This document shows, piece after piece, positions 16,838-57,477 of a stretch of 64,000 bases of DNA. The first letter of the stretch is position 1. Each line of letters opens with the position of its first letter. The position numbers and the translations under genes are program-made. Source of the DNA: an uncultured Planctomycetia bacterium. Its GTDB lineage: Bacteria; Omnitrophota; Gorgyraeia; Duberdicusellales; 4484-171. The DNA lies in NCBI GenBank assembly GCA_964605645.1, contig CAZSDJ010000002.1, positions 394 to 64,393 on the forward strand, in the 5' to 3' direction. A model generated the notes under the pieces. That model searched no databases. It was given only the letters and a program-made list of their open reading frames with translations, and had not been told where the DNA came from.

Positions 16838-16887
16838 AAGTCCAAAGTTTTTTGACATAGGACGTAGGACATAGGACGATGGACTAT
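16838..16887. repeat. heptamer repeat array (GGACNTA)x5 preceded by AAGTCCAAAGT, mlaF-mlaD spacer
   Basis: aagtccaaagttttttgacataggacgtaggacataggacgatggactat. Member of the dispersed AAGTCC/GGAC heptamer family. Confidence 0.7.
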
Positions 16888-16905
16888 AAAAAGGGAGGAA
16901 TATAG

Positions 16906-17610
16906 GTGAGTAAGAATTTGTGGGAAATTAGAAAAAGGTTTTCTTATATAAAAGTGGGTGTATTTTTTTTAGGAGGGGTATCTTTATTGTTTATAGCCTT
17001 GGTAGCAATTAAAGATATTAATTTATTCAAACAAGGTTATAAAATACAAGTTATTTTTGATTTTGCAGAAGGCATGAAAAGAGCTTCACCGGTGCGGTTT
17101 TGCGGGGTTGATATAGGTGAGGTGCAAGAAGTAGTAGTTGTAAATAGTACAAAAGGGCCTCATGTTCAGGCTAGAGTTAACCTGGAAAAGGGAGTAAAAA
17201 TACCAAAAGGTTCTTATTTTTTTATAAATAGTTTAAGTTTATTTGGTGAAAAATATTTGGAAATTACTCCGCCGGAAGAGTTTTCCGGGTATATAAAAGA
17301 GGGAGAAACGATTAAAGGAATATCACCGGTACCTCTTTTTAAGTTATTTGCTGATTTTAGTAAAACTATGGATGAACTAAGAAGCTTTGTGAAGGAAGGC
17401 GAAATTAAAGAATCTTTAGAAAATACGATGAAAAATTTAGAAGAGATTAGCTTGGAAGCTAAAAAGTTAATATTAGATGTAAGGGATAAAAAAGGTACAA
17501 TCGGAAAATTGTTTTATGATGATTCGCTCTATCAAGAAACAGAAGAGTTTATCTCAGATATAAAGAAAAACCCCTGGAAGCTATTATACAAACCGAAAGA
17601 GGGGAGATAG
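16906..17610 (+). CDS. mlaD: MCE-family phospholipid-binding protein MlaD (GTG start)
   Basis: N-terminal TM then MCE domain. RBS AAGGGAGGAA at 16891-16900 with GTG at 16906. Confidence 0.8.
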   Translation: MSKNLWEIRKRFSYIKVGVFFLGGVSLLFIALVAIKDINLFKQGYKIQVIFDFAEGMKRASPVRFCGVDIGEVQEVVVVNSTKGPHVQARVNLEKGVKIPKGSYFFINSLSLFGEKYLEITPPEEFSGYIKEGETIKGISPVPLFKLFADFSKTMDELRSFVKEGEIKESLENTMKNLEEISLEAKKLILDVRDKKGTIGKLFYDDSLYQETEEFISDIKKNPWKLLYKPKEGR

Positions 17611-17653
17611 TAGGAGTTTAAAAAGTTAAATGTCACACGTCTCAAACTAACAT

Positions 17654-19015
17654 ATGACTTGTGACTTTAATATTATGTATAGTTGTAAAGAATGCGGATA
17701 TCAATCAATAAAGTGGATGGGTAAGTGCCCTAATTGCGGGGGTTGGGAAACTTTTTTGCAAAAAATTAGTGAATCTTCTTCCCGAAAATTAAAATCTCGG
17801 CCCAAATCAGTTCCTCGTCTGCTTAAAGATATTGGTAAAATAAAAAACGAAAGAACAAAAACTGATCTTTCTGAATTTGACCGGATTTTGGGCGGAGGGT
17901 TAATAGCCGGCCAGGTAATATTGATTGGAGGTGAACCGGGGATTGGAAAATCTACGCTTTTGCTGGAGGTAGCTTCTAAATTATCAAAAGAAGGAAAAAC
18001 TATGTATGTAAGTGCTGAAGAATCGCCGCAGCAAATTGGAGTTAGAGCTGAGCGCCTGGCAAATGTTTATCCCGAAAAACTTTATATTAGTGATGAAGAA
18101 AGAGTGGAAAATATTTATAAAACTATTGAATCAGAAGGATTTCAATTTGTAGTTGTAGATTCTATTCAAGTTATGACTAGTGCTTTTGCCGACGGTGCCA
18201 AGGGGAGTGTTCTTTCGGTCAGAAGTTGTGCTGATTATCTAACTCAGGCAGCAAAAGCGTTAGGAGTTGTAATATTTATAGTGGGGCACGTTACAAAGTC
18301 GGGTACAATCGCCGGGCCTAAGCTGCTTGAACATATTGTAGATAGTGTACTTTATTTTGAGGGTGAAACTCTATCTAATTATCGAATTTTACGTTCAATT
18401 AAAAACCGATTTGGGCCAACGGGCGATATTGCTGTTTTTGATATGACATCCAGCGGTTTATCGGAAGTTAAAAAGATTAATGATATTTTTTTGCCGCATA
18501 AAAAAGAATCGTCTCCCGGGAGTTGTGTTATTTGCCCTTTACAAGGTTCGCGTCCAATTTTAGTTGAACTGCAATCACTTGTAAGCCGGGCAACTTTTGG
18601 AACAGTAAGAAGAAGAAGCTTAGGTTTTGATTTTAATCGATTTTCTTTATTGGTTGCGATAATTGAAAAAAGGTTGAAGGCTAAAATATCCGGTGAAGAT
18701 ATTTTTTTAAATGTTGCCGGCGGCCTGCGTATCAATGATCCGGCTGCAGATTTAGGGGCGGTAGTTGCGATTATCTCCAGTTTTTTAGAAAAAAAAGTTC
18801 CTGCCGGAGGGGTATTTATTGGTGAAGTGGGGTTAGGAGGAGAGTTAAGGAAAGTTCGGGATATAAATTCAAGGTTGCGAGAAATAGAGAGGGCAAATTT
18901 CACTTATTGTTATTTGCCTGAGGCTAACAAAAAAGAAGTGGATAAAAAATTTGTGAATAAGGTTTTTGGTTTTTCCAATTTAGGAGAAATTTATCAGGAA
19001 CTTTTTAAAAGTTGA
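17654..19015 (+). CDS. radA: DNA repair protein RadA (Sms)
   Basis: N-terminal C4 zinc finger CKECGY...CPNCGGW, RecA-like Walker A GEPGIGKST, KNRFG motif, C-terminal Lon-like domain. Alternative start at 17675 (MYSCKECG). Confidence 0.9.
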   Translation: MTCDFNIMYSCKECGYQSIKWMGKCPNCGGWETFLQKISESSSRKLKSRPKSVPRLLKDIGKIKNERTKTDLSEFDRILGGGLIAGQVILIGGEPGIGKSTLLLEVASKLSKEGKTMYVSAEESPQQIGVRAERLANVYPEKLYISDEERVENIYKTIESEGFQFVVVDSIQVMTSAFADGAKGSVLSVRSCADYLTQAAKALGVVIFIVGHVTKSGTIAGPKLLEHIVDSVLYFEGETLSNYRILRSIKNRFGPTGDIAVFDMTSSGLSEVKKINDIFLPHKKESSPGSCVICPLQGSRPILVELQSLVSRATFGTVRRRSLGFDFNRFSLLVAIIEKRLKAKISGEDIFLNVAGGLRINDPAADLGAVVAIISSFLEKKVPAGGVFIGEVGLGGELRKVRDINSRLREIERANFTYCYLPEANKKEVDKKFVNKVFGFSNLGEIYQELFKS

Positions 19016-19021
19016 TATTGT

Positions 19022-19060
19022 AAGGTATTCTCTAAATATATTCATTTTTAATGAGGAGGG
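19022..19060 (+). promoter_or_regulatory. conserved leader block with palindrome TCATTTTTAATGA abutting RBS GGAGG of yacL
   Basis: Near-identical to 11958-11997 (clpC leader). Palindrome at 19042-19054. Candidate -35 TTGATA at 19017-19022. Confidence 0.6.
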
Positions 19061-19063
19061 TGT

Positions 19064-20053: not shown

Positions 20054-20054
20054 G

Positions 20055-23223: not shown

Positions 23224-23245
23224 TCTTTCAACAATAAAAAGAAAA

Positions 23246-25069: not shown

Positions 25070-25082
25070 TTTACTTGTTTAT

Positions 25083-26162: not shown

Positions 26163-26175
26163 TATTTTTTAAAAA

Positions 26176-27075: not shown

Positions 27076-27117
27076 GGAACTCCTTATATTAAGCAGATCG
27101 ATGATACCTAAATATAC

Positions 27118-27140: not shown

Positions 27141-27304
27141 ATTATCCGCCTCAAGACTGCTGTTTCATCTATTTTTAATGATAATGAAGGCGGATAAAAT
27201 TATATTATCAGAGAACTTGAGAAAAGTCAATTAATGTGGTACAATCCCTCACCGTTTAATAAGGATAAAGGATAAAGGTTAAAAAAGGGAAGAGTGAAGA
27301 AAAA

Positions 27305-29122: not shown

Positions 29123-29177
29123 TAATAAATAATTGAAAATATTGTTGAATATGATATACTTTTCAAATGAATCTTAC

Positions 29178-29219: not shown

Positions 29220-29314
29220 TTTAGATGAATTTGACCCTTGACATTTCTTGATGAACAAAGTTTATTATACATACATTTTACAATGCGAAAACGATATAAG
29301 GAGGAAAAAATACA

Positions 29315-30310
29315 ATGGGATTGACAGATACTATTAAAAAAATGTTGGAAGGAGGGGTTCATTTTGGGCATCTGAAGCGCAATTGGAACCCTAAAATGAA
29401 GAAATTTATTTTTGGTAGAAAGAAGAATATTTATATTATTGACTTAGAAAAAACTACTAAAAAGTTAGATCAAGCAAAAGAATTTGTTAAAGAAATAGCC
29501 AAATCAGGCGGGAATATTCTTTTTGTGGGGACCAAAAGGCAGATTAGGCCGGTGATTAAAGAGTTGGCAAATTCGTGTGACATGCCTTATGTGGACCAAA
29601 AATGGGTAGGAGGCTTGCTTACCAATTTTTCTACTATCAAAAAACGCTTGCAAAGATATCAAGAACTTCTCAAAATGCGGGAAAATGGAGAATTCGACGA
29701 CATCCCCAGTAAAGAAGTGGTGCGCCTGAATCGCCAAATTAGCCGGATGGATAAAAATTATAGTGGGCTGACCTCACTTACAACTTTACCGGATTGCGTG
29801 TTTGTGGTAGATCCAAAAAGAGAAAAATCTTCTGTAAGAGAAACAGCTAAATTATCAATTCCTTTGGTGGCTCTAATTGATACCGATGCTAACCCTGAAG
29901 AAGTAGATTACCCTATCCCCGGTAATGATGATGCAATTAGATCAGTAAAATTTATTGTCAGTTCTTTAGTTGAGGCGATAGAGGCCGGAAGAGAAAGTTA
30001 CCACAAAATAGAAAAAGAAAAAGAATCTAAAGAAAATAAAGAATTAAATGGCCAAGAAGAAAAATCGGAAGATGGAACCGAACAAGATAAAGAGCAGCAA
30101 GGAGAGAAAAAAGAGAAGGGAGAGAAATCCGAAATAGGAAATGCGAAATCCGAAAAGGAGAAAGGAGAAGAACAAAAAGAGAAATCCGAAATACGAAATA
30201 CGAAATCCGAAAAGGAGAAAGGAGAAGAACAAAAAGAGAAATCCGAAATAGGAAATGCGAAATCCGAAAAGGAGAAAGGAGAAACAAACAAAGAGGAGGA
30301 AGAGGAGTAG
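29315..30310 (+). CDS. rpsB: 30S ribosomal protein S2 with about 95-aa acidic/lysine-rich tandem-repeat C-terminal extension
   Basis: N-terminal S2 core (GVHFGH, ILFVGTKRQ, FVVDP...AL...IP). The tail contains three 19-aa repeats EKSEIGNAKSEKEKGEEQK. Confidence 0.9.
   Translation: MGLTDTIKKMLEGGVHFGHLKRNWNPKMKKFIFGRKKNIYIIDLEKTTKKLDQAKEFVKEIAKSGGNILFVGTKRQIRPVIKELANSCDMPYVDQKWVGGLLTNFSTIKKRLQRYQELLKMRENGEFDDIPSKEVVRLNRQISRMDKNYSGLTSLTTLPDCVFVVDPKREKSSVRETAKLSIPLVALIDTDANPEEVDYPIPGNDDAIRSVKFIVSSLVEAIEAGRESYHKIEKEKESKENKELNGQEEKSEDGTEQDKEQQGEKKEKGEKSEIGNAKSEKEKGEEQKEKSEIRNTKSEKEKGEEQKEKSEIGNAKSEKEKGETNKEEEEE
30122..30292 (+). repeat. 3 x 57-bp tandem repeat within rpsB 3' coding region
   Basis: Unit gagaaatccgaaataggaaatgcgaaatccgaaaaggagaaaggagaagaacaaaaa repeated in-frame. 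Explains the spurious minus-strand ORFs at 29998-30380. Confidence 0.85.
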
Positions 30311-32116: not shown

Positions 32117-32122
32117 AATTTA

Positions 32123-32283: not shown

Positions 32284-32323
32284 ATTAGCCAATGGCTAAT
32301 GGCTAATAGCTATAAGCTAAATT

Positions 32324-32396: not shown

Positions 32397-32459
32397 TGTT
32401 TAATGTTCTTTATATAAGGCGAGTAGCAAGTAGTAAATTAACCAATTAACCAATTAATT

Positions 32460-39423: not shown

Positions 39424-39426
39424 ATT

Positions 39427-39458
39427 AGTCCATAGTCCAAAGTCCTATGTCCAAAGTC
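39427..39458. repeat. heptamer repeat array (AGTCCNN)x4.5 after DAHP synthase stop
   Basis: agtccatagtccaaagtcctatgtccaaagtc. Overlaps the annotated tyrA 5' end, whose true start may be 39474. Confidence 0.7.
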
Positions 39459-40960: not shown

Positions 40961-40996
40961 TTGAACTTGCCAATTGCTGATAAATAAGTAAAAAAG

Positions 40997-42793: not shown

Positions 42794-42801
42794 GAGAAAA
42801 A

Positions 42802-43386: not shown

Positions 43387-43700
43387 TTAAAAGTCCAAAG
43401 TCCAAAGTCCAAAGTCCAAAGTCAATAAAAGAGATTAGTTTACTTTTTATAATAGGTTTGTTTTTAATTGGTTGCATTAGAACTCAGGAATATATTTATC
43501 AAGAGGATGCTTTTAAGAAAGTTGAAGAAGTTGAAGGACAGCCGGAAGAAAAGTTAGAAATTGGCCAAGAAAAATGGATGGATATTTATTTCGAAGAAAA
43601 TAATTTTATTATGCAGTGTCCGGTTTGTATGAGAAGATATCCGGGCAATGTAGAAAAATGTCCTTATGATGGGGCAAATTTAGATAAAATTAAGGAGTAA
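43383..43700 (+). CDS. small lipoprotein with C-terminal zinc-ribbon (CPVC...CPYDG); N-terminus encoded by heptamer repeat
   Basis: Start overlaps the lepB stop (ATGA). N-terminus KSPKSKVQSPKS translates the (AAGTCC)n array. Lipobox LIGC. C-terminal CxxC-x13-CxxDG. Confidence 0.5.
   Translation: MIKSPKSKVQSPKSIKEISLLFIIGLFLIGCIRTQEYIYQEDAFKKVEEVEGQPEEKLEIGQEKWMDIYFEENNFIMQCPVCMRRYPGNVEKCPYDGANLDKIKE
43391..43423. repeat. heptamer repeat array (AAGTCCA)x4.5
   Basis: aagtccaaagtccaaagtccaaagtccaaagtc. The most regular copy of the family. Confidence 0.8.
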
Positions 43701-43723
43701 CTTTTAACCTATGAGGTGTAAAA

Positions 43724-44846: not shown

Positions 44847-44857
44847 TCTTGTGGAAT

Positions 44858-44886
44858 TTGACACTCTTATTTTAGAAGAGTATAAT
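44858..44886 (+). promoter_or_regulatory. consensus promoter TTGACA-17-TATAAT for recA with inverted repeat CTCTT-N7-AAGAG in spacer
   Basis: TTGACA at 44858-44863, TATAAT at 44881-44886. RBS GGAGGT precedes the ATG at 44922. Confidence 0.55.
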
Positions 44887-44921
44887 TCAAATGAAACTCA
44901 AACTTATGAATGGAGGTAACT

Positions 44922-47363: not shown

Positions 47364-47367
47364 TAAA

Positions 47368-47838
47368 TTGAAAAATTTCAGTAAGGCCTTAAGTTATTCT
47401 TTTCTTCTTCTCCGTTATCGGCCAAGAACTGAAGTTGAGATTTATAAACGTCTTAAAAATAAAAAATATCCCTGGGCAATTATCAAGGATGTAGTTGAAG
47501 TTTTAAAAAATTATAATTACATAAATGACCAAGATTTTATAAAATCTTATATAAGCAGTTCTCTAGAAAAGGGTTGGGGGCCGGTAAGGGTTAACGTTAA
47601 TTTGAAAAAAATTGGAATATCTGAAAAATTACGGGAAAAAGCCGTAAGAAAAATAGAAGCAAAAAGTAATAAATTAATAAAAAATCTTATAGATCAAAAA
47701 AAATATTCTTTAAATAAAAACCAGCCAAATTTAGATAAAAACAAAAAACAAAAAAAAATAATAAAGTTTTTAGCAAATAAGGGTTTTTACTATCGAGATA
47801 TATTTACTCATTTAGCAAATAAAAAAAATGAAAACTAA
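47368..47838 (+). CDS. recX: recombination regulator RecX
   Basis: RecX-like three-repeat helical protein (ALSYSFLLLRYRPRTEVEIYKRL, KGWGPVRVNVNLKKIGI). Between recA and alaS as in many bacteria. Confidence 0.7.
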   Translation: MKNFSKALSYSFLLLRYRPRTEVEIYKRLKNKKYPWAIIKDVVEVLKNYNYINDQDFIKSYISSSLEKGWGPVRVNVNLKKIGISEKLREKAVRKIEAKSNKLIKNLIDQKKYSLNKNQPNLDKNKKQKKIIKFLANKGFYYRDIFTHLANKKNEN

Positions 47839-50503
47839 CCAACTCCGAAAAAAATACATAAACTTCTTTAAAGAAAAAGGCCACCGGCTTTTTCCTTCTG
47901 ATAGCTTAGTTCCTGATGATCCTTCAGTTCTTTTTACTTCAGCGGGCATGAATCAATTTAAACCTTATTTTCTTGGCCAAAATAAAAAAGTAAATACAGC
48001 TGTATCTTGTCAAAGGTGCTTGCGTACCGGCGATATTGAAAGAGTAGGGCAAACTCCTTATCATCATACTTTTTTTGAAATGTTAGGTAATTTTTCTTTT
48101 GGGGATTATTTTAAAAAGAAAGCAATAAGTTTAGCTTGGGAATTCCTGACTCAAACTTTAAAAATTGATAAAAAAGATCTTTGGGTCTCAGTTTATAAAA
48201 AAGATAAAGAAGCTTTTTCAATTTGGAAGGATGAAATAGGAGTTTCCACCAAAAAAATATTAAAATTAGGCCAAGATGAGAATTTTTGGCCGGCTAATGT
48301 TATTGAGGAGGGGCCCTGCGGCCCCTGCGGCCCTTGTTCTGAAATTTTTTTTGATCGAGGCAACAATATTGGGTGCAAAAAAAAATCTTGCAATCCAACC
48401 TGTGATTGTAATCGTTTTGTAGAAATTTGGAATCTTGTTTTTACTCAATTCAACCGGCAAGCCGACAAAAACCTAAAGCCATTACCTCAAAAAAATATTG
48501 ATACCGGGATGGGGCTGGAAAGGATGGCTTCTGTTTTACAAAATAAAGATTCTAATTTTGAAATTGATATTTTAGCTCCGGCGGTTAGCAAAGTAAAAGA
48601 AATATTAAAATTAGATAAAAATTTTGATAAAAATTATTTAATCAATTCCATTGTTGATCATTCCCGTGCAGTTGTGTTTTCAATAGCGGATGGGGTGTAC
48701 CCTTCTAATGAAGAACGAGGCTATGTTATCCGTAAATTATTGCGAAAATCTTTGTGGGCTGCTAATCTTTGTGGTTATAAAGAATCATTTGTTTATAAAT
48801 TATTACCTATATTTATTAAAACGATGCAGGAACCTTATCCTTACTTGGCAAAAAAAGAAAAAGTAATAAAAAAGGTTATAAAAGCGGAAGAAGAAAAGTT
48901 TATTCTCTCCTTAGAAGAAGGGAAAAATAAATTTTTTGAATATTTAAAAGAATTAAAAAATAAAAATAAAAAAATTTTGCCGGCAACAAAATTGTTTCGC
49001 CTTTACGATACTTACGGTTTTCCTTTTGAGTTAAGTGAAACTATGGCAAAAGAAAATAATATTAATGTTGACAAGCAAGGAGCAAAAAAGCTATTGGCAA
49101 AACAAAAAGAACGTTCTCGGGCCGGCAGTAAGTTTTTAAAAGATATATTTACAAAGAATTCCTCTCTGTTTGGCGGCAGCGAGCCTACAATTTTTGTTGG
49201 TTATCAAAAAATAAAAACTAATGCTCGAATTAGTCATATTTTGCCCATAGACAAAATGAAAGTTAATTGGCACAAGCAAAAACAGCAACTTCAAGAAGGA
49301 GAAACCGGAGTAATTATTTTAGACAAAACTTCTTTTTATCCGGAATCCGGCGGGCAACTTTCTGATTGCGGCCGGATCAAAACTAATCAAGGAGTATTTT
49401 TTGTAGAGAATGTGTATAAAATAGGTGATGGAGATATTTTTGTTCACCGGGGAAAAGTTATTGAAGGTATAATTAAAAAAGAAGATGCAGAATTAATAGT
49501 TGACCAAAAAAGAAGGCAAGCCTTAAAAAGGGCTCATACTGCAACGCACCTTCTTCAAGCAGCTTTAAAACATTGCTTGGGAGATCATGTAAGCCAACAG
49601 GGTTCTTTAGTTGATGTAGATAGATTACGCTTTGATTTTACTCATTTTAAAGCGTTAACTAAAAAAGAAATAGAAACTACAGAAGAGTTAGTAAATACTT
49701 ATATTTTTGCAGCAAATAAGATTAATAAAGAAGAAAAATCTTTAGAGCAGGCTAAAAAAGAAGGAGCACTGGCATTTTTTAAAGAAAAGTATAAAGATAA
49801 AGTTAGAATGGTTTCTGTAGCTAACTATAGTAAAGAATTGTGTGGAGGTACTCATTTAGAAAATACTTCAGAAGTAGGGGGTTTTGCAATAGTTTCAGAA
49901 AGTTCAGTAAGCAGTGGGATAAGAAGAATTGAAGCGATAACCGGAAATAAATTCTATCGGCTTTTTAAGCAGAATGAAAAAGAAATTATCGATTTAGCCC
50001 AGCTGCTTAAATGCAATCCTGCCAGTATCAAACAAACTATTATAAAAACAATAAATAGTTACAAAGATTGCAAGAGTGAGATTGGTAAAATTGCTAAAGA
50101 AAAAATTTTAGATATTTCTAAAAAATTAATTAAAGATTCTGCTGAAAAAATTAAGGGTATCGATTTGGTAGTCTATGATTTTACAAAAAAAGATAATTTT
50201 AACCTAGAATACAATAATTTTTTTGATTTATTGGATATAACCAAAAAACAAATAAAATTATTTTTTATTTTTGTAATTGGCCGGCAGAATGATAAAATAA
50301 GGTTTTTTTGTTCTTGCTCAAAACAACTCAATAAGAAAGGAATAAGTTGCCGGAGTTTTATCAATCAATTTAAAGAGGAGCTGCCCATAAAAGGCGGCGG
50401 CACCGATAGTTTAGTGCAGGGGGTTGTAAGCGGCAAAGGTAACAACTTGGATCAGAAGGTTAAAAAATGTATTGTGAGGTATTTAAAAAATGAGAGTAGT
50501 TAG
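47828..50503 (+). CDS. alaS: alanine--tRNA ligase
   Basis: Class II catalytic core with GPCGPC(GPC)SEIFFD. Editing domain HTATHLL and CGGTH. C-terminal DHHA1 with GGG. 891 aa. Confidence 0.95.
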   Translation: MKTNQLRKKYINFFKEKGHRLFPSDSLVPDDPSVLFTSAGMNQFKPYFLGQNKKVNTAVSCQRCLRTGDIERVGQTPYHHTFFEMLGNFSFGDYFKKKAISLAWEFLTQTLKIDKKDLWVSVYKKDKEAFSIWKDEIGVSTKKILKLGQDENFWPANVIEEGPCGPCGPCSEIFFDRGNNIGCKKKSCNPTCDCNRFVEIWNLVFTQFNRQADKNLKPLPQKNIDTGMGLERMASVLQNKDSNFEIDILAPAVSKVKEILKLDKNFDKNYLINSIVDHSRAVVFSIADGVYPSNEERGYVIRKLLRKSLWAANLCGYKESFVYKLLPIFIKTMQEPYPYLAKKEKVIKKVIKAEEEKFILSLEEGKNKFFEYLKELKNKNKKILPATKLFRLYDTYGFPFELSETMAKENNINVDKQGAKKLLAKQKERSRAGSKFLKDIFTKNSSLFGGSEPTIFVGYQKIKTNARISHILPIDKMKVNWHKQKQQLQEGETGVIILDKTSFYPESGGQLSDCGRIKTNQGVFFVENVYKIGDGDIFVHRGKVIEGIIKKEDAELIVDQKRRQALKRAHTATHLLQAALKHCLGDHVSQQGSLVDVDRLRFDFTHFKALTKKEIETTEELVNTYIFAANKINKEEKSLEQAKKEGALAFFKEKYKDKVRMVSVANYSKELCGGTHLENTSEVGGFAIVSESSVSSGIRRIEAITGNKFYRLFKQNEKEIIDLAQLLKCNPASIKQTIIKTINSYKDCKSEIGKIAKEKILDISKKLIKDSAEKIKGIDLVVYDFTKKDNFNLEYNNFFDLLDITKKQIKLFFIFVIGRQNDKIRFFCSCSKQLNKKGISCRSFINQFKEELPIKGGGTDSLVQGVVSGKGNNLDQKVKKCIVRYLKNESS

Positions 50504-51710
50504 AAACATAGAAAGCTTAAAAAAAGTAATTGATAAAAGAAGAGTGCGCAAAGATAGTGTTAACCTAAAGGTTGCTAAAATTATTGCAAAAGTTAAACAA
50601 GAAGGGGATAAGGCCTTAGTCGATTATACTAAAAAATTTGATAAAGTGAAAATTCCTTTAAAAGCTATTCAAATTAGCGAATCAGAAGTAAGTGCGGCTT
50701 TTGGAGATTTAAATTCAGCACTTATTTCCAGCTTTAAAATAGCTATTGAAAATATTACTAAATTTTATAAAAAACAAATCCCCAAAGCCAGAAGAACAAA
50801 AGACCCTAATGGCAAAAAACTTATTAGCCGTTATGTTCCTTTGGCTAAAGTTGGGGTTTATGTCCCGGCTGGTACAGCTCCGCTCGTGTCTTCTGTGTAT
50901 ATGTCTGTGATCCCGGCGTTGGTAGCAGGAGTTGATGAAGTCGTATTAGTTTCACCGCCGAATAAAGAAGGCAGAATTAATCCTTTTATTTTAGCTATTG
51001 CATCTTTATTGAAAATTAAAAAAATATATCGAGCCGGCGGCGCGCAAGCTATTGCTGCTTTAGCTTATGGCACAGAAACTATTGAAAAAGTTGATAAAAT
51101 TGTCGGTCCCGGTAATGAATATGTTACCGAGGCAAAAAGGCAAGTTTTTGGGCAAGCTGATATTGATATGTTAGCCGGGCCTTCCGAGGTTGTGGTGGTA
51201 GCATCCAGTAATTCAAACGTTGACTACATTATTGCTGATCTGGACGCTCAGATAGAACATTATAAAGGGTTAGGGATTGTGGTTACTAATTCAAAGCGAA
51301 TTATTAGGGCCCTGCGGCAAAGTAAAGTTACCGGTTATGCTTTAAGGGTAAGGAATTTGGATAAGGCAGTCGAAGTAGTCAACCAAATTGCACCGGAACA
51401 TTTAGCAATTTTAACTAAAAAACCACATGCTTTAGTTAGTAAGATAAGAAATGCCGGAGCAATATTCTTAGGAGATTATAGTCCCGTTGCTTTAGGAGAT
51501 TATACTGCCGGGCCGTCCCATGTTCTCCCCACCGGAGGCAGCAGCCGTTTCTTTTCTACACTTTCGGTAAAAGATTTCTTAAAAGAAAGCCATATTATTC
51601 GTTATACTAAAAAAGCTGTATTAGAAGAGTTTGATACTTTAGAAAAAATTGCGAATTTAGAAGGGATGAAAAAACACATAGAAAGTGTGAGAAAACGGAT
51701 AGAAAATTAA
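50490..51710 (+). CDS. hisD: histidinol dehydrogenase
   Basis: 406 aa, HisD family (zinc and NAD binding regions). Confidence 0.9.
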
Positions 51711-51725
51711 GCAAGGAGAAGAGTG

Positions 51726-52355
51726 ATGTTCAATAAAAAAAGAGAATCAAAATTAATGAGAAAAACTAACGAAGTAGATATTGAAGGCTGTTTTAACCTG
51801 GATGGCTCAGGTAAAACTAAAATAAATACCGGTTTTGAACCGCTTAATCATCTACTTACTTTATTTGTTTTCCATGGCTTGTTTGATTTAGAGTTGAAAG
51901 CGAAAGGTGATCTCCAACATCATATCATAGAAGATATCGGGATTGCTTTGGGAAAAGCCCTGAAAGAATCATTGGCAGAAAAAAAAGGCATAAATAGATA
52001 CGGTACTTTTTCCGCTACTATGGATAAGGTAGTGGTTGAAGCAAACATTGATATCAGCGGCAGGCCTTCTTTACAGAAAAAAGTAAGTGATGACAATAAA
52101 GCAATCGTTGAAGCTACCTTGTCCGGAGATACTTTTGATGACACAAACTTTCGTTTTAAGGATGCTGAGGAATTTTTAGAAGCATTTATTCAGCACTCGG
52201 GTTTAAGTGTGGTTTATATAATTAAATCTGGAGAAGGAGATCTGCACCATCTATTGGAAGCTTTATTTAAAGCTTTGGGTAAGGCCCTAGATCAAGCCAG
52301 TCAAATTGATCCTCGCCGTCGCGGTGTTCCTTCAACCAAGGGAATTATTGATTGA
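51726..52355 (+). CDS. hisB: imidazoleglycerol-phosphate dehydratase (monofunctional)
   Basis: IGPD motifs (TNEVDIEG, HHIIEDIGIALG, GDLHHLLEA). RBS AAGGAG supports the ATG at 51726. No fused phosphatase domain. Confidence 0.9.
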   Translation: MFNKKRESKLMRKTNEVDIEGCFNLDGSGKTKINTGFEPLNHLLTLFVFHGLFDLELKAKGDLQHHIIEDIGIALGKALKESLAEKKGINRYGTFSATMDKVVVEANIDISGRPSLQKKVSDDNKAIVEATLSGDTFDDTNFRFKDAEEFLEAFIQHSGLSVVYIIKSGEGDLHHLLEALFKALGKALDQASQIDPRRRGVPSTKGIID

Positions 52356-52357
52356 AA

Positions 52358-52463
52358 AGTCCTAAGTCCAGAGTCCTATGTCCTGTGTCGAAAAAATAAT
52401 TAAGAAAGATTTAATAAATTATAAAAATTATGACGTTGGACTTAAGACGTAGGACCTTGGACT
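52358..52463. repeat. inverted pair of heptamer arrays (AGTCCNN)x4 ... (GGACNNN)x4 flanking a 48-nt A/T-rich spacer, hisB-hisH intergenic
   Basis: Left arm aagtcctaagtccagagtcctatgtcctgtgtc at 52358-52389. Right arm ggacttaagacgtaggaccttggact at 52438-52463, the approximate reverse complement. Confidence 0.75.
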
Positions 52464-52471
52464 AAAATATT

Positions 52472-53128
52472 ATGACAGTAATAGTTGACTATGGGATGGG
52501 TAATTTAGAGAGTGTAAAAAACGCGGTTCTTTTTTTAGACAAAAAAGTAATTATTACCAGCTCACCTAAAGACTTACTCGCGGCTGAAAAGATTATTTTT
52601 CCCGGTGTGGGCCATTTTGGAAAAGCAATAACTGAATTAAAAAAAAGAGGGCTTGTTGAAATTTTAAAGAAAAGAATTAACCAAGGTATACCTTTTTTAG
52701 GAATTTGTTTAGGGATGCAATTGCTATTTGAAAAAAGCAGCGAAGCAGAAGGGGTAAACGGCCTTGGCCTGATAAAAGGAGAAGTTTTAAAGTTTAATTC
52801 TAAAAATTTAATTGTGCCTCATATGGGGTGGAATCAGATAAATAAAGTCCAAAGTCCTAAGTCCAAAGTCTCCGCCTCCGCCAAGACTATGGCGGACAAG
52901 CTAAGTCAAGAAAAGGGGTTGTTTGAGGGGATTGAAGACGGCAGTTATTTTTATTTTGCCCACTCTTATTTTTGTAAGCCCCATGAAGATGTTACCTTAG
53001 CAACCGTTGATTATGGTGAAAATTTTAGTTGTGCTATACATAAAAAAAATATTTGGGCTATTCAATTTCATCCGGAAAAAAGCCAAAAGAAAGGCTTAAA
53101 AGTTTTAGATAATTTCTTAATAATTTAG
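52472..53128 (+). CDS. hisH: imidazole glycerol phosphate synthase glutaminase subunit HisH, with in-frame repeat-derived insertion
   Basis: Class I GATase triad (GICLGMQ Cys, HPE His). Extra segment KVQSPKSKVSASAKTMADKLSQEK between the GWN and LF motifs. Confidence 0.9.
   Translation: MTVIVDYGMGNLESVKNAVLFLDKKVIITSSPKDLLAAEKIIFPGVGHFGKAITELKKRGLVEILKKRINQGIPFLGICLGMQLLFEKSSEAEGVNGLGLIKGEVLKFNSKNLIVPHMGWNQINKVQSPKSKVSASAKTMADKLSQEKGLFEGIEDGSYFYFAHSYFCKPHEDVTLATVDYGENFSCAIHKKNIWAIQFHPEKSQKKGLKVLDNFLII
52845..52870. repeat. heptamer array (AAGTCCN)x3.5 inside hisH coding sequence
   Basis: aagtccaaagtcctaagtccaaagtc read in-frame as KVQSPKSKV. Followed by the tccgcctccgcc mini-repeat. Confidence 0.75.
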
Positions 53129-53132
53129 AAAA

Positions 53133-53840
53133 ATGATAATAATTCCTGCTATTGATTTATATCAGAAAAAAGTTGTAAGATTGATTAAGGGAGAGAAGTC
53201 CGATTGTAAGGTTTATAGTGATAACCCGGTTGAGGTGGCAAAAAAATGGCAAAGCCAAGGAGCTAAGTGGCTGCATTTAGTAGATTTATCTGCTGCTTTT
53301 TCTGAAGGTGACAACAAAGATATAATCGAAAGGATTATAAGAGAAGTAAATATCTCAGTGGAGGTAGGCGGCGGTATTCGCAGTCTTGAAGAAATAGAAA
53401 AATTAGTGTCTCTGGGGACAGATAGGATAATATTAGGCACTAAGGCAACAGAATTAGATTTTTTAAAACAAGCTTTAGCTATTGCCGGTGATAAAATAGC
53501 AGTGGCAGTGGATGAAAAAGATGACAAAGTCGCAGTAGACGGTTGGCAGAAAAATAGTGATTTATCAATATCCCAATATCTAAATTATCTAAAAAAGCAG
53601 AGAGTTGAGTGGGTAATTTATACCGATATCTCTCGTGATGGCACCTTGCAAGGCTTAAATTTTTCGAAAATAAAACAATTTTTTAAAGATAATCAATTTA
53701 ATTTAATTTTTTCCGGAGGTATTTCTTGCCTAGAAGATATAAAAAGCTTAAAAACAGCAGCTCCTACCGCAAAAGGAGTAATCGTGGGAAAAGCTCTTTA
53801 TGAGAAAAGATTCAGTCTCGCAGCTGCTTTAGCTATTTAG
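53133..53840 (+). CDS. hisA: ProFAR isomerase HisA
   Basis: N-terminus IIIPAIDL, (beta/alpha)8 HisA/HisF family. 235 aa. Follows hisH. Confidence 0.85.
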   Translation: MIIIPAIDLYQKKVVRLIKGEKSDCKVYSDNPVEVAKKWQSQGAKWLHLVDLSAAFSEGDNKDIIERIIREVNISVEVGGGIRSLEEIEKLVSLGTDRIILGTKATELDFLKQALAIAGDKIAVAVDEKDDKVAVDGWQKNSDLSISQYLNYLKKQRVEWVIYTDISRDGTLQGLNFSKIKQFFKDNQFNLIFSGGISCLEDIKSLKTAAPTAKGVIVGKALYEKRFSLAAALAI

Positions 53841-53898
53841 GTTTAAGAAGATTGTAATTACAAGTGCGACAATTCTAAAAAGTAGTTTTTTACCTGTT

Positions 53899-53927
53899 AT
53901 TGCGAGGAGCGTAAGCGACGAAGCAAT
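53899..53927. repeat. ATTGCGAGGAGC-N-CGACGAAGCAAT element (copy 2)
   Basis: Differs from copy 1 (11761-11788) at about 3 positions. Lies in the hisA-MNT spacer. Confidence 0.6.
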
Positions 53928-53957
53928 CTCTCATAAATAGAGTAAAGATTGTTTCGC

Positions 53958-53996
53958 CTTTGACAACAGAACCGCTAAAATATACAGTTGTCAAAG
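53958..53996. promoter_or_regulatory. inverted repeat CTTTGACAAC-N19-GTTGTCAAAG containing TTGACA -35-like boxes on both strands
   Basis: Same architecture as the rpsB P1 region and the 27118 palindrome. Upstream of the MNT/HepT pair. Confidence 0.45.
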
Positions 53997-54116
53997 ACTC
54001 CCAATGACACTGAGACAAGTTGTTGCAATATGAGTTACAATTCACCTTGATAGTGCTCAGTTGCAAAAAAGGTGTTTTTTAGAATCTTTTTATGCTATAA
54101 TTATTCGAATATAATT

Positions 54117-54419
54117 ATGTTGACTAGAAAAGAAATATTTTCAATTTTAAAAAATCAATTGCCTTATTTACGCAATTATTTTGGTGTAAGCCGCATTGCA
54201 GTTTTTGGTTCTTTTGCAGAGGGTTCTCCGCGGGAAAATAGTGATGTTGATTTATTGGTTGAATTTGATAAATCACCCGGATTAAAATTTATAGAACTGA
54301 GCGAGTATCTTGAAAAAAAAATAGGTAAAAAGGTTGATATTTTGACACCGGGCGGCCTTAAAGGGATACGGCTTTCTAGAGTGGCTGAAGATATAAAGAA
54401 TAGTTTGCACTATGTCTAA
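54117..54419 (+). CDS. minimal nucleotidyltransferase (MNT) antitoxin of HepT/MNT type VII TA system
   Basis: GSFAEGSPRENSDVDLLV, a Pol-beta-type NTase GS...D.D motif. About 100 aa. Start chosen at MLTRKEIF rather than the ORF-track 54072. Confidence 0.7.
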   Translation: MLTRKEIFSILKNQLPYLRNYFGVSRIAVFGSFAEGSPRENSDVDLLVEFDKSPGLKFIELSEYLEKKIGKKVDILTPGGLKGIRLSRVAEDIKNSLHYV

Positions 54420-54759
54420 AAGAAATGATCTTGATTATATAGCAGACATCTTGGAAGCATTAAAAAGGATATTTTCTTACTGTGATAATTTGAATTATGA
54501 TCAATTTTTAGATGATGAAAAGACTCAGGATGCTGTAGTACGCAACCTTGAAATAATTGGCGAAGCATCTAAAAATATTTCTTCTGTTTTTTCTCAAAAA
54601 TATTCCGAAGTTACTTGGAGTGATTTAGCTAAAGTTAGAGACAAGCTTATTCATCATTATTTTGGTGTGAATATAGATATTGTTTGGAGTATTATCGAAA
54701 GTTCTTTGCCTAAACTGCAGAATCAATTAAAAGAGATTTATGATCGCGAGATTTGCTAG
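54412..54759 (+). CDS. HepT-like (DUF86/HEPN) RNase toxin
   Basis: HEPN Rx4HxY motif RDKLIHHY. 115 aa. Overlaps the MNT gene by 8 nt. Confidence 0.7.
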   Translation: MSKRNDLDYIADILEALKRIFSYCDNLNYDQFLDDEKTQDAVVRNLEIIGEASKNISSVFSQKYSEVTWSDLAKVRDKLIHHYFGVNIDIVWSIIESSLPKLQNQLKEIYDREIC

Positions 54760-54812
54760 TTTTTTAAGATTAATTGTTGACAAGACTCTATAATATGGTA
54801 TAAAAATTGCCT

Positions 54813-55238
54813 ATGCAAAAGACTAAATTTTATAAAAAAGACGAAAAAGATTGGATTTTGATTAACGGCCGCGGCAGGATTTTGGGCCGTTTAGCTACCC
54901 GCATTGCGCGAATTTTGCAGGGTAAACACAAGGCTACCTATACTCCTAATTCTATTTGTGGAGATAAAGTGGTGGTTATCAATGCAAAAGGGATAAAAGT
55001 AACGGGCAAAAAAGATACAGATAAAAAATATGATAAATATTCCGGCTATCCGGGTGGGCGAAAAGAAATCAGGTTAGAAGAGTTATTGGAAAAAAGCCCT
55101 ACTAAAGCTTTATTTTATGCGGTAAGCGGGATGCTTCCGAAAAATAAATTAAGAAAAGATATGCTGAGGTCATTAAAGATTTATGCCGGCAAAGATCATA
55201 AACAAGCTGCACAGCAGCCAAAAGAGGTAGATGTTTAA
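54813..55238 (+). CDS. rplM: 50S ribosomal protein L13
   Basis: L13 family (DWILINGRGRILGRLATRIARIL). 141 aa from the ATG at 54813. Confidence 0.9.
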   Translation: MQKTKFYKKDEKDWILINGRGRILGRLATRIARILQGKHKATYTPNSICGDKVVVINAKGIKVTGKKDTDKKYDKYSGYPGGRKEIRLEELLEKSPTKALFYAVSGMLPKNKLRKDMLRSLKIYAGKDHKQAAQQPKEVDV

Positions 55239-55239
55239 G

Positions 55240-55650
55240 ATGGAAATGAAAACAGAAAATAATAAGATACATAATGCTACCGGCCGCCGCAAGGAATCAG
55301 TGGCAAGGGTTAAATTAGTGCCGGAAGGCTCAGGAGTGCTAAAGGTAAATGGTAAAAAGATAGATGATTATTTTACTACTGTTGACAGTAGAAATCAGGC
55401 AAAGAAGCCTTTGCTCGCAACTGAATTAGATAAAAATGTAGATATTCAGGCGAAGGTAAGCGGTGGAGGCCTAAGCGGTCAAGCGGGGGCAATCTCTTTA
55501 GGGATAGCCCGTTGCTTACTTGTTTGGCGGCCGGAATTAAAGACCATCCTTAAAGAACAGAACTTTCTTACCCGTGATCCCCGTGCAAAAGAGCGGAAAA
55601 AATACGGCCGTAAAGGTGCCCGCAAAAGATTTCAGTGGACAAAGCGCTAA
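55240..55650 (+). CDS. rpsI: 30S ribosomal protein S9
   Basis: GRRKESVARVKL and C-terminal KYGRKGARKRFQWTKR. Start chosen for RBS AAGAGG spacing. Confidence 0.9.
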   Translation: MEMKTENNKIHNATGRRKESVARVKLVPEGSGVLKVNGKKIDDYFTTVDSRNQAKKPLLATELDKNVDIQAKVSGGGLSGQAGAISLGIARCLLVWRPELKTILKEQNFLTRDPRAKERKKYGRKGARKRFQWTKR

Positions 55651-55698
55651 TTTTTTTCGTCTTGATAATTATTTTTGTAAATTGAGGTATTCCCATTC

Positions 55699-56886
55699 AT
55701 GACCAATACAATTGAAGAAATTATTGAAGATATTAAGCAAGGTAAGCCGGTAATTGTGGTCGATGATGAATCTCGCGAAAATGAGGGTGATATTGTCATT
55801 GCAGCTCAATTTGCAACTCCTAAAATTATTAATTTTATGATTAAAGAGGCAAGAGGATTAGTTTGTGTGCCTTTAACCAAAAAAAGGACAGAACAATTAC
55901 AACTTAATCCGATGTCTGATAAAGATTCTGATGATAAATTTAAAACGGCTTGGCGAATTTCAGTTGATGCAAAAAAGGGAGTAACTACCGGAATTTCTGC
56001 TTATGATCGAGCTCGGACCATTGAAGTATTAATTGATCCAAAAAGCAATGGAGATTCTTTTCTGAAGCCCGGCCATCTTTTTCCCCTTGAAGCTGAAGAA
56101 GGAGGAGTTTTAGTAAGGGCCGGCCACACTGAGGCGGCCGTTGATTTAGCAAAGATATCAGGGCTTAAGCCAGCTGGAGTAATTTGTGAAGTGATCAAAG
56201 AAGATGGCTCAATGGCAAGATTCCCCGATTTAGTTGAATTTACTAAAATTCATAATTTAAAAATTTGTACTATTGCTTCTTTAATCGAATATCGCAGGCG
56301 TAAAGAAAAATTAGTTAGTTTAGTTGAAAAAGTTAAATTGCCCACTGCTTATGGTGATTTTTCTTTATGTTTATATCAATCAATTTTAGATAACAGCCAA
56401 CATCTGGCTTTAGTTAATAATTTAAAAAGAGATAAACCTGTTTTGGTTAGAGTTCACTCCGAATGTTTAACGGGTGATGTGCTGGCCTCACTGCGGTGTG
56501 ATTGCGGAACTCAATTGCAAAAAGCCTTAAAGATGATTGGAGAATCGGGAGGAGTGCTTTTGTATATGCGTCAAGAAGGTAGGGGGATTGGCCTCGCCAA
56601 TAAAATTAAAGCTTATAAATTGCAAGAAGAAGGTAAAGATACAGTGGAGGCAAATACTGATTTAGGTTTTGAGCCTGACCTCCGTGATTATGGGATTGGG
56701 GCACAAATTTTAGCGGATTTGGGTATTAAAAAAATAAGGCTGCTAACCAATAATCCGCGCAAAATAGTCGGCCTGGAAGGTTATGGCTTAGAGATAACCG
56801 AAAGAGTTTCAGTTAAAATTAAATCAGGTAAAGACAATAGTTGTTACCTCAATACAAAAAAAGATAAATTAGATCATATCTTGTGA
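55699..56886 (+). CDS. ribBA: bifunctional 3,4-dihydroxy-2-butanone-4-phosphate synthase / GTP cyclohydrolase II
   Basis: DHBP synthase N-terminal half (VVDDESRENEGD, RAGHTEA). GCH II half with zinc Cys CLTGD...CDCG. 395 aa. Confidence 0.9.
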   Translation: MTNTIEEIIEDIKQGKPVIVVDDESRENEGDIVIAAQFATPKIINFMIKEARGLVCVPLTKKRTEQLQLNPMSDKDSDDKFKTAWRISVDAKKGVTTGISAYDRARTIEVLIDPKSNGDSFLKPGHLFPLEAEEGGVLVRAGHTEAAVDLAKISGLKPAGVICEVIKEDGSMARFPDLVEFTKIHNLKICTIASLIEYRRRKEKLVSLVEKVKLPTAYGDFSLCLYQSILDNSQHLALVNNLKRDKPVLVRVHSECLTGDVLASLRCDCGTQLQKALKMIGESGGVLLYMRQEGRGIGLANKIKAYKLQEEGKDTVEANTDLGFEPDLRDYGIGAQILADLGIKKIRLLTNNPRKIVGLEGYGLEITERVSVKIKSGKDNSCYLNTKKDKLDHIL

Positions 56887-56913
56887 TATAATCGTATTTA
56901 ATCGGGAGGGTTT

Positions 56914-57372
56914 ATGAAAGAAATCAAAGGCAAATTTGACGGTAAAGGGAAAAAGATAGCGATAGTAATTTCCCGTTTTAATGAATTAATTAGTAAGCGG
57001 TTGCTGGAAGGCTGTCTGGATACTTTAGGAAAGTGCGGGACTGACGACAAAAGTATCTCTATCTATTGGTCACCGGGTGCTTATGAAATCCCTCAAGTTT
57101 TGTCAAAATTACAGACAAGCAAGTTTGACGCAGTCGTAACTTTAGGTGCAGTGATTAGAGGCGATACGCCTCATTTTGAATATATATCTTCTGAGGTTGC
57201 AAAAGGAGTGGCGAAAGTAGCTCAAGATAAAAAAATACCAATAGCTTTTGGGATAATTACAGCTGATACCATTGAGCAAGCAACCGAAAGATCAGGGACT
57301 AAACAGGGCAATAAAGGCTCTCAGGCAGCTTTTTCTGCTTTGGAAATGGCTAACTTATACAGTCAATTATAA
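56914..57372 (+). CDS. ribH: 6,7-dimethyl-8-ribityllumazine synthase
   Basis: 152 aa lumazine synthase fold (IAIVISRFNE, GAYEIP). Confidence 0.9.
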   Translation: MKEIKGKFDGKGKKIAIVISRFNELISKRLLEGCLDTLGKCGTDDKSISIYWSPGAYEIPQVLSKLQTSKFDAVVTLGAVIRGDTPHFEYISSEVAKGVAKVAQDKKIPIAFGIITADTIEQATERSGTKQGNKGSQAAFSALEMANLYSQL

Positions 57373-57375
57373 AAC

Positions 57376-57477
57376 AGTCCAAAGTCCATAGTCCCAAGTC
57401 AAAAGAATAAACTTTATTGCTTATTTTAAAATTTAAAAATAATGACATAGGGCTTCGGACACAGGACATAGGACTAT
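57376..57477. repeat. inverted pair of heptamer arrays (AGTCCNN)x3.5 ... (GGACNNN)x4.5 flanking a 44-nt A/T-rich spacer, ribH-nusB intergenic
   Basis: Left arm agtccaaagtccatagtcccaagtc at 57376-57400. Right arm gacatagggcttcggacacaggacataggactat at 57445-57477. Confidence 0.75.

Follow-up and report, generated by a model that had tools for sequence, protein, structure and literature searches.

Dispersed heptanucleotide repeat arrays of probable slippage origin at gene junctions and within genes of an Omnitrophota bacterium

A 64,000-nt stretch of contig CAZSDJ010000002.1 (assembly GCA_964605645.1), from an uncultured bacterium assigned by GTDB to the Omnitrophota, carries a family of tandem repeat arrays whose 7-nt units share the core GTCC on the + strand, or GGAC where an array is inverted. 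This whole stretch is referred to below as the window. Our results demonstrate that the arrays are dispersed heptanucleotide simple-sequence repeats (SSRs) of the class represented by the cyanobacterial STRR, Xanthomonas GGGAATC and Beggiatoaceae TAACTGA repeats. They consist of head-to-tail 7-nt copies, their excess is specific to period 7, and one unit recurs at many, mostly non-coding loci of the 64-kb window. Length and unit vary widely between species, and the arrays of the same-species pair L004/L005 are identical. We think it likely that such arrays arose by replication slippage and local inverted duplication and were kept where the resulting hairpin holds the stop codon of one gene and the start codon of the next close together.

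The window has a G+C content of 34.5%, is approximately 96% coding and has 60 of its 62 genes on the + strand. The GTCC/GGAC family comprises nine arrays at six loci within 41 kb of it. A preliminary description, made by reading the sequence, had reported at least eight loci; arrays are present at every place that it listed, and its count is replaced by the one given here. Its identification of the adjoining genes was right throughout (ABC ATPase and MlaD, DAHP synthase and prephenate dehydrogenase, signal peptidase, IGPD and HisH, lumazine synthase and NusB). Array boundaries were set by Tandem Repeats Finder (TRF) together with a pattern search. TRF gave period 7 at all loci of the family, with 3.4 to 5.3 copies and 100% matches at 43390-43423, and the pattern search confirmed the register. 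An exact chain search of the window recovered five GTCC chains of 3 to 4 units and three GGAC chains, at the places previously described.

The arrays are far more frequent than expected by chance. With up to two mismatches allowed, GTCCNNNGTCCNNNGTC matched the window 24 times, versus 2.0 ± 1.4 times (maximum, 5) in 100 dinucleotide-preserving shuffles. When periods 4 to 12 were scanned in the window, enrichment was seen at period 7 alone, with six stringent segments compared to 0.05 in shuffles, and periods 4 to 6 and 9 to 12 gave none. Period-7 arrays occur at 14 to 15 per 100 kb in the clade, at 5.5 in unrelated metagenome loci (727 kb) and at 2.4 in two distant Omnitrophota, and other periods account for 0 to 6 arrays per 100 kb, versus 14 for period 7. 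The 727-kb background consists of unrelated metagenome contigs around hisH (L126 to L205) encoding generic HisH proteins of at most 56% identity. Because the HisH peptide patterns used were universal, these contigs are not comparable at orthologous junctions and served as a background set only. In this background, too, period 7 is the commonest non-triplet tandem period, as the other periods considered (4 to 6, 8, 10 and 11) are found at 0 to 2.5 arrays per 100 kb. This is in line with published reports that heptamers are over-represented.

Placement is also far from random. Seven of the ten heptamer loci of the window are intergenic in spite of its high coding density (binomial P ~1.5e-8). 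The arrays thus sit at gene junctions, as had been proposed; two of the GTCC arrays, those at 43390 and 52844, lie in coding sequence. The former had been placed at the lepB stop and the start of a small open reading frame (ORF); the position is correct, but rather than marking a bare boundary the array is in frame at the 5' end of a lipoprotein-like ORF. In the window and most relatives, 5' arms begin 1 to 8 nt past a stop codon, and three arms of relatives begin at 10 to 17 nt. Array length clusters at 4 to 5 units.

Comparison with syntenic relatives reveals that the sites persist and the units change. The comparison set consisted of seven syntenic loci (L001 to L004 and L206 to L208), which with the window make eight genomes, and of two more distant loci, L620 and L621, the latter being the outgroup. 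The nearest HisH homologues that bear a source name are labelled Candidatus Omnitrophica/Omnitrophota, and the peptide VQSPKSKVQS recurs in many of the nearest homologues. The ribH-nusB spacer contains a heptamer-armed hairpin in 8/8 genomes, made of at least four different units. These are GTCC/GGAC in the window, L002 and L004 (homologues of the arm pair of the window were found in the latter two), AGTCC paired with ACTATAT/ACGAAAT in L003 and L208, NAGATNN/AATCTNC in L001, and GTTCAAC/AACRTWG in L206 and L207. Between hisB and hisH, there are GTCC arms in the window and L004, AAGGATT/AAGTGAT arms in L002, ATATCGT/(ACGAAAT)5 arms in L003, ATAATTG units in L208, a lone right-arm-like stretch in L001, and two TATCCTT-like units in a 20-nt spacer in L206 and L207. 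Within hisH, arrays occupy the same codon of one loop. The array is a perfect (AAAGTCC)x4.9 in L001, L003, L004 and L207, is x3.9 with a 32-nt extra segment in the window, and is composed of AAAGYCC units in L002, AAGGATA/AAGGTTC units in L206 and (AGTTGCC)x4.4 in L208. At the end of lepB, AAAGTCC or AAAGTCT is kept in six relatives, and a 14-nt repeat is found instead in L208.

A comparison of orthologous junctions had been suggested as a means of detecting presence/absence polymorphism and target-site duplications. Variation in presence and length among relatives was indeed observed, and a consistent target-site duplication was not. The length of orthologous spacers varies between 20 and 375 nt, with short hisB-hisH spacers in L001, L206 and L207. 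The 20 kb of L621 contain no period-7 array, and its spacers are 15 nt (hisB-hisH) and 37 nt (ribH-nusB). In L620, the corresponding hisH loop contains a decayed CAAAATC array.

The closest relative, L208, shares 89 to 91% DNA identity with the window, with a divergence at four-fold degenerate sites (d4) of 0.15 to 0.42; for most other pairs involving the window, d is at least 1. Between the window and L208, flanking sequence remains 93 to 98% identical as far as the stop and start codons, and the changed segments are sharply bounded. Of the four shared sites, three have arrays that cannot be aligned, and at ribH-nusB the left arm alone is still recognisably related.

Among the interpretations put forward in the preliminary description, that of a slippage-prone element fits best. 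It accounts for the excess specific to period 7, for the perfect arrays, for 14-nt patterns and for the spread of variants within arrays. In the lepB array of L003, for example, AAAGTCT is found in three of five units, and 14-nt super-units are present in L002 and L004. The paired arms also appear to have a local origin. At hisB-hisH, L001 has the right arm without the left and L002 has both, and a partial inverted arm is present inside hisH in the window only. This suggests that inverted arms arise locally and do not arrive as a unit.

Our structure predictions agree with the earlier proposal that paired arrays can fold into long imperfect hairpins. The hisB-hisH element (52353-52468) has a predicted dG of -33 kcal/mol (z score, -6.2), the ribH-nusB element (57370-57482) one of -24.1 kcal/mol (z, -4.2), and an element with AAGATAC units (10626..10775) one of -56.6 kcal/mol (z, -9.9). 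Four paired elements of relatives gave z scores of -3.6 to -5.7, so that seven paired elements with five different units range from -3.6 to -9.9. The stems consist of 4- to 5-bp GUCC/GGAC helices separated by partly mismatched linkers, with loops of approximately 45 nt in the window. The mlaF-mlaD pair, whose left arm has just 1.5 units, folds weakly (z, -2.3). In hisH, the array and the adjoining 32-nt segment are predicted to pair (dG, -15.2 kcal/mol; z, -3.3). Unpaired arrays show no such folding: no significant structure was predicted for that at 39426..39458 (dG, -3.4 kcal/mol; z, -0.95), and none for (AAAGUCC)5, including 43390..43423 (minimum free energy, 0). A scan of the window with Rfam 15 at the gathering score returned three tRNAs only and nothing at the arrays.

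We propose that replication slippage, for which 7-nt units are favoured in many bacteria, would create and homogenise the arrays, and that local inverted duplication by template switching would place a complementary arm beside an existing array. A compact genome would then keep only harmless insertions, that is, unstructured and stop-free arrays encoding hydrophilic peptides in genes, and hairpins in intercistronic spacers. The in-frame arrays occupy tolerant spots, namely, a surface loop of HisH, the N-terminal region of a signal peptide and the tail of RpsB. In the spacers, the folded hairpin would bring the upstream stop and the downstream start together, leaving 10+8 nt at hisB-hisH and 4+31 nt at ribH-nusB (approximately 18 and 35 nt). 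Spacers in genomes without the element measure 15 to 26 nt and 37 nt, respectively. Both hisH and nusB lack a Shine-Dalgarno (SD) sequence in all eight genomes, and other genes of the window have strong ones. As the folded distances match the element-free spacers and these two genes lack SD sequences, their translation could stay coupled to that of the upstream gene, and we infer that the hairpins would maintain this coupling.

Several results weigh against slippage as a sufficient account. The first concerns the rate of change. At 4/4 shared sites, the unit or arm of the window is not that of L208, at a d4 of just 0.15 to 0.42, and AAAGTCC and AGTTGCC differ at at least 4 of 7 positions, which is beyond the prediction of simple drift. 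This d4 is roughly what the drift of a homogenised unit requires, but the number of changes predicted from it is below the four or more observed. L004 and L005, the sole same-species pair, are identical, and no copy-number polymorphism was seen between them. No compensatory pair was found in the GTCC hairpin, in an alignment whose three sequences make the count uninformative. Furthermore, two of the four genes preceded by a hairpin, mlaD and the aminotransferase gene, have strong SD sequences of their own, so that coupling is not general.

The second concerns conservation. The 34-nt hisH array is identical at 34/34 positions in every pair of L001, L003, L004 and L207, whereas its flanks (107 to 113 nt) are 71 to 88% identical and their third codon positions 50 to 83%; d4 to L004 is above 1. 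At a per-site identity of ~74%, the chance that 34 sites remain unchanged is of the order of 1e-5. Likewise, among the 31 GTCC-family units of the window, the core (positions 3 to 6) is unchanged at 122/124 positions, a count somewhat biased by ascertainment, since it is by the core that an array is recognised. The linkers (positions 1, 2 and 7) depart from the consensus at 34/93, mostly by A/T exchanges in a 65% A+T genome. Under the standard theory of concerted evolution, as we apply it here, the unit consensus drifts no more slowly when slippage homogenises an array. Judged from these sequences, neutral slippage alone leaves the conservation of the hisH array and the core unexplained. The near-invariance of GTCC and the base-perfect AAAGTCC arrays across deep divergence point to sequence-level constraint on top of slippage. 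Part of the constraint on the core is plausibly stem stability, the core supplying the only G+C-rich bases in an A+T-rich spacer. Unpaired arrays have no stem, yet their core is conserved, and stem stability cannot account for it there.

This raises the possibility that the arrays are cis-elements under purifying selection. A putative RNA- or DNA-binding factor would read a 4-nt core and a 3-nt linker every 7 nt, as part of a post-transcriptional or nucleoid-level network, and slippage would explain only the birth of the arrays. We regard this as unlikely on the sequence patterns at hand. The contrast between core and linkers is maintained against A+T pressure and extends to unpaired arrays, the in-frame hisH array is intact across genomes with saturated synonymous sites, the AAAGTCC family is present in 8/8 clade genomes, and the preferred length of 4 to 5 units would suit a reader. 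Unpaired arrays, being wholly unstructured in the predictions, would be accessible. Sites are kept while unit families swap, as if readers and units co-evolved. Arrays abut starts without SD sequences, as reported for TAACTGA repeats (PMC4679880), and a Nostoc preprint describes modest reporter effects when heptamers are deleted (10.1101/2022.06.06.494920); Csp, S1 or KH-type proteins have been proposed for the Beggiatoaceae and Nostoc heptamers. However, close relatives have unrelated cores at the same sites (AGAT, ACGAAAT, GTTCAAC, ATAATTG, AGTTGCC and AAGGATA), and a single sequence-specific reader therefore cannot explain the class. In addition, pairs contain both orientations, the associated genes (his, rib, mla, aro and lepB) have no common theme, and no candidate factor emerged.

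Nor is the AGTCC core itself privileged across bacteria. A search for (AGTCCNN)x4 with one genome per species found at least 120 loci in many phyla, and the matches listed include Acidobacteria, Planctomycetes, Verrucomicrobia, Chloroflexi, Gemmatimonadetes, Bacteroidetes, Saccharibacteria, proteobacteria and Nostocales. These listed genome loci also hold 155 further period-7 arrays with very diverse units. Among viral contigs, AGTCC gave 94 loci, and five permutations of the core gave 18, 36, 44, 102 and at least 120. We therefore rejected a universal AGTCC core; the general phenomenon is tandem heptamers of any sequence. Most AGTCC arrays across phyla, among the matches listed, are unpaired, and a universal order rule for inverted pairs was also rejected, given 8 GTCC..GGAC and 12 GGAC..GTCC pairs across phyla among these matches. 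The consistent orientation stressed earlier for the window is uninformative as well. The order GTCC-then-GGAC follows automatically in inverted pairs of one type, since both strands read alike, and with all genes of the span on the + strand it is silent on orientation relative to transcription.

Could the paired elements instead be miniature non-autonomous mobile elements, similar to miniature inverted-repeat transposable elements or to repetitive extragenic palindromic (REP) elements and bacterial interspersed mosaic elements (BIMEs), with heptamer terminal inverted repeats and insertion just past stop codons? We consider this improbable. The suggestion, made in the preliminary description, draws weak support from the variable spacers among relatives and from the short ones at both junctions of the outgroup. 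The hisB-hisH and ribH-nusB elements of the window are alike in architecture, in size (~110 nt) and in their loop ends, but they are not near-identical copies (63% mean column identity), and their arms share only the core and are not exact inverted copies. There is no consistent target-site duplication at the three window elements: TATAAA flanks two of the three but coincides with the stop-codon context, and none is found at hisB-hisH or in L002 and L004. An insertion of ~300 nt with a G+C-rich palindromic stretch lies inside the hisB-hisH hairpin loop of L004 (approximately 9640-9950), where the spacer reaches 375 nt. No transposase or REP-associated transposase was noticed among the ten window ORFs scanned. 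Many arrays have no partner, L001 keeps one arm where L002 has both, and units change in place at fixed sites, including that in hisH.

It is very improbable that the GGAC arms are clustered CsrA/RsmA-type GGA sites controlling downstream translation or that the hairpins are terminators or attenuators, both of which had been suggested. GGA does recur every 7 nt 5' of mlaD, hisH and nusB, and the hairpins are stable in prediction. The GGA triplets are paired in the stem, however, and not displayed in hairpin loops; orthologous hairpins are built of the GGA-free units NAGATNN, ACGAAAT, GTTCAAC and ATAATTG; every unpaired array shows AAGUCC, which lacks GGA, on the mRNA; and an SD sequence adjoins the mlaD array only. 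As for termination, no terminator-like site (a G+C-rich stem followed by a T run) overlaps any array in 39000-58000, loops of ~45 nt are unlike those of intrinsic terminators, and the hisB-hisH element sits between consecutive histidine biosynthesis genes. Restriction or methylation sites and Chi/KOPS-like or uptake-sequence-like roles were set aside, since such sites are not tandem 7-nt arrays and many cores occur here. Templated synthesis similar to that of diversity-generating retroelements or telomerase was likewise rejected for unit replacement, as the changes are concerted across units and not adenine-specific, and a reverse transcriptase was not noticed in the small number of ORFs scanned.

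Slippage with local inverted duplication remains our preferred account of the arrays listed in Table 1. Beyond the GTCC/GGAC family, the window contains four heptamer families that the preliminary description had not reported, with the units AAGATAC, AAGGATA, AATGGCT and GAAATNC. Two of these units recur at the sites compared above: AAGGATA stands in place of AAAGTCC inside hisH of L206, and ACGAAAT, as in the rpsB repeat, forms the hisB-hisH arm in L003.

Table 1 Heptamer arrays and associated segments in the window (coordinates in nt; x, number of copies)
Feature	Position	Strand	Units or sequence	Context
Rudimentary 5' arm, mlaF-mlaD spacer	16838..16849	+	AAGTCCAAAGTT, 1.5 units	5 nt past stop of ABC ATPase gene (mlaF-like)
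GGAC-type array, mlaF-mlaD spacer	16854..16887	-	~4.5 units; - strand: ATAGTCC ATCGTCC TATGTCC TACGTCC TATGTC	End 19 nt 5' of MlaD start, just upstream of SD sequence GGGAGGA
Unpaired array	39426..39458	+	x4.7: TAGTCCA TAGTCCA AAGTCCT ATGTCCA AAGTC	3 nt past DAHP synthase stop, 5' of prephenate dehydrogenase gene
Unpaired in-frame array	43390..43423	+	Perfect (AAAGTCC)x4.9, encodes KSPKSKVQSPKS	Charged N-terminal region of the signal peptide of small lipoprotein-like ORF 43383-43700 (MIKSPKSKVQSPKS...), which overlaps lepB stop
5' arm, hisB-hisH hairpin	52357..52389	+	AAGTCCT AAGTCCA GAGTCCT ATGTCCT GTGTC	2 nt past hisB stop
A+T-rich loop/inner stem, hisB-hisH element	52390..52431	+	Ends like those of ribH-nusB loop (GTCRAAAAAATAA ... 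AAAAATWATGAC)	
3' arm, hisB-hisH hairpin	52432..52464	-	GGAC type, 4.5 units	End 8 nt 5' of hisH ATG; no SD sequence
In-frame array inside hisH	52844..52870	+	x3.9: AAAGTCC AAAGTCC TAAGTCC AAAGTC, encodes KVQSPKSKV	Variable HisH loop, between GWNQ and LFxGI motifs
Extra in-frame 32-nt segment of hisH	52871..52902	+	TCCGCCTCCGCCAAGACTATGGCGGACAAGC, encodes SASAKTMADKL	Partial GGAC-type inverted copy of the adjacent array; by alignment gap pattern, present in window row only
5' arm, ribH-nusB hairpin	57375..57400	+	CAGTCCA AAGTCCA TAGTCCC AAGTC	3 nt past ribH stop
3' arm, ribH-nusB hairpin	57444..57477	-	GGAC type, 4.4 units	End 30 nt 5' of nusB ATG
AAGATAC array	10626-10660 (whole left side, 10626-10695)	+	AAGATAC x4.3 plus AAATNCC units (TRF)	Left side of 150-nt hairpin between ABC ATPase gene and class IV aminotransferase gene
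Inverted partner of AAGATAC array, 60 nt downstream of it	10719-10775	+	TTGTATC/TTGGTTA units	Right side of the same 150-nt hairpin
AAGGATA array	27261..27283	+	AAGGATA x3.3	5' leader of ABC exporter gene
GAAATNC heptamers	30121..30283	+	Nested in 57-nt repeat x2.9 (96% matches)	In rpsB (29315-30310); encodes K/E-rich C-terminal extension (~100 residues) of ribosomal protein S2, past the Pfam domain
AATGGCT array	32284..32321	+	AATGGCT x3	Between tRNA-Leu and tRNA-Gly

Several other features were observed in the window and its relatives. The strong promoter-like sites nearest to the hisB-hisH pair are at 44858 and 53960. The former is a perfect sigma-70 consensus promoter (TTGACA, 17 nt, TATAAT) at 44858-44886, upstream of recA, and may start a transcription unit that includes the hisB-hisH and hisH arrays. 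In L206, AATGACA and AATTTGA heptamer arrays flank two short ORFs inserted between ribBA and ribH (13648-13984); one of these ORFs matches the 23S_rRNA_IVP (four-helix bundle) family. A 21-nt in-frame repeat (x2.3) at the 3' end of hisD is common to the window (51658-51705) and L208 (9211-9258). The motif CCAAGACTAT, which adjoins an array in the window and in L089, was considered as a shared element and rejected, as its 9 matches in 5.6 Mb are at chance level.

Repeats of other periods are also present in the window. An 8-nt tandem repeat (AATTAACC, x2.8) at 32436-32457 lies just 3' of the tRNA cluster and directly before the ATG at 32460. Upstream of the gene at 12001, a 74-nt tandem repeat (x2.4; 11806-11982) has as its core ggcatctcgccgaggaagtcggctcgatgtcattaaaaat, a small G+C-rich hairpin; this core is found at the ribBA-ribH junction of relatives (L001, 15663-15702; L002, 5194-5233) and not at that of the window, and is a second dispersed intergenic element unrelated to the heptamers. 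A 36-nt leader ending in an SD sequence, ggtattcgctaaatatattcatttttaatgaggagg, is nearly identical 5' of unrelated genes across genomes (window, 11960-11995 and 19024-19059; L003, 13713-13748; L206, 3513-3548). The G+C-rich hairpin motif attgcgaggagc...gcgacgaagcaatct, which lies in two long intergenic regions (53899-53929 and approximately 11758-11790), may represent another small repeat family.

The Omnitrophota are a new phylum for heptamer repeats: a full-text literature search found no description of them in this group. Their dominant unit here, AAGTCCA, cannot form a G-quadruplex, and quadruplex formation therefore cannot be a general explanation of such repeats. Published cyanobacterial, Xanthomonas and Beggiatoaceae examples are mainly descriptions of one or two genomes, and the value of our results lies in the comparative pattern rather than in categorical novelty. 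Across eight syntenic genomes, sites persist with replacement of the unit, AAAGTCC is conserved at the nucleotide level in a coding region, and cores are constrained while linkers drift. This pattern separates the origin of the arrays, by slippage, from the reasons for their retention. If there is no reader, the arrays are a clear example of a compact genome that tolerates only insertions which fold away or encode a harmless peptide. If there is one, the Omnitrophota would provide a comparative approach to what bacterial heptamer repeats do, a long-standing question since the cyanobacterial STRR.

Among known systems, REP elements and BIMEs are intergenic, transcribed imperfect palindromes that lie within operons after stop codons, vary among strains and can stabilise mRNA 3' ends, and the arrays of the window resemble them in outline. 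REP units, however, are single palindromes of 20 to 40 nt associated with REP-associated tyrosine transposases, unlike tandem heptamers, and we know of no 7-nt period in REP elements. The binding sites of HutP (UAG+N4, with a 7-nt period) and TRAP (spaced GAG/UAG) combine a short core and free spacers with an oligomeric protein reader. They offer an analogy only, since they are single leaders for one operon and not dozens of dispersed arrays with many cores.

As in the window, cyanobacteria with STRR repeats have several heptamer families per genome, mostly intergenic and with lineage-specific units. The phylum and the units differ, and cyanobacterial arrays can be much longer, reaching ~16 units in our scan. 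The STRR1 unit CCCCAGT (Calothrix and Nostoc) becomes AGTCCCC in another register and thus contains the AGTCC core; the matches listed in the AGTCC scan include an STRR1-type unit in Nostoc, Dolichospermum and Anabaena. This likeness to the window appears to be coincidental, since permuted cores are found just as often.

The SSRs of Xanthomonas (GGGAATC) and Nostoc (GGGGA(C/T)T) are 89 to 93% intergenic, with a modal length of four units, a mean distance of 28 nt from the upstream stop and 70 to 75 convergent (inverted) nearby pairs among ~185 arrays per genome (Rehm et al. 2015; PMC4692102). These authors, who also cite three tandem heptanucleotides in Calothrix PCC 7601, reported extensive variation of length and sequence among related species that have occupied junctions in common, and found no function. 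Both the papers on Xanthomonas and on Beggiatoaceae (PMC4692102 and PMC4679880) cite Mrazek et al. 2007 for heptamers as the most abundant class of long SSRs; according to the citing papers, that study invoked polymerase slippage, ~7 nt being the stretch held by the replicative polymerase. Our arrays resemble those of Xanthomonas and Nostoc in having a conserved core with variable positions (GGGANTN in theirs), approximately four units, intergenic sites, inverted pairs and junctions shared by relatives. In contrast, the units of Xanthomonas and Nostoc are G-rich and form G-quadruplexes, whereas those described here belong to an A+T-rich Omnitrophota genome, lie also in frame in essential genes, and are swapped between close relatives. 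The Nostoc preprint with the reporter effects mentioned above postulates a binder.

In one Beggiatoaceae genome, ~170 intergenic sets of 2 to 6 TAACTGA copies are located mostly just 5' of start codons without ribosome-binding sites, and some are found within ORFs or within ribosomal-protein operons. As readers, the author proposed S1, Csp or CsrA but demonstrated none (MacGregor 2015; PMC4679880). The arrays of the window are likewise heptamer sets at intergenic sites, with some in ORFs, that abut starts lacking SD sequences. The TAACTGA copies are nearly all direct (one indirect repeat), share one orientation and lie beside the start codon; here, by contrast, it is the stop codon that the 5' arm follows, inverted pairs occur frequently, and several unit families are found together.

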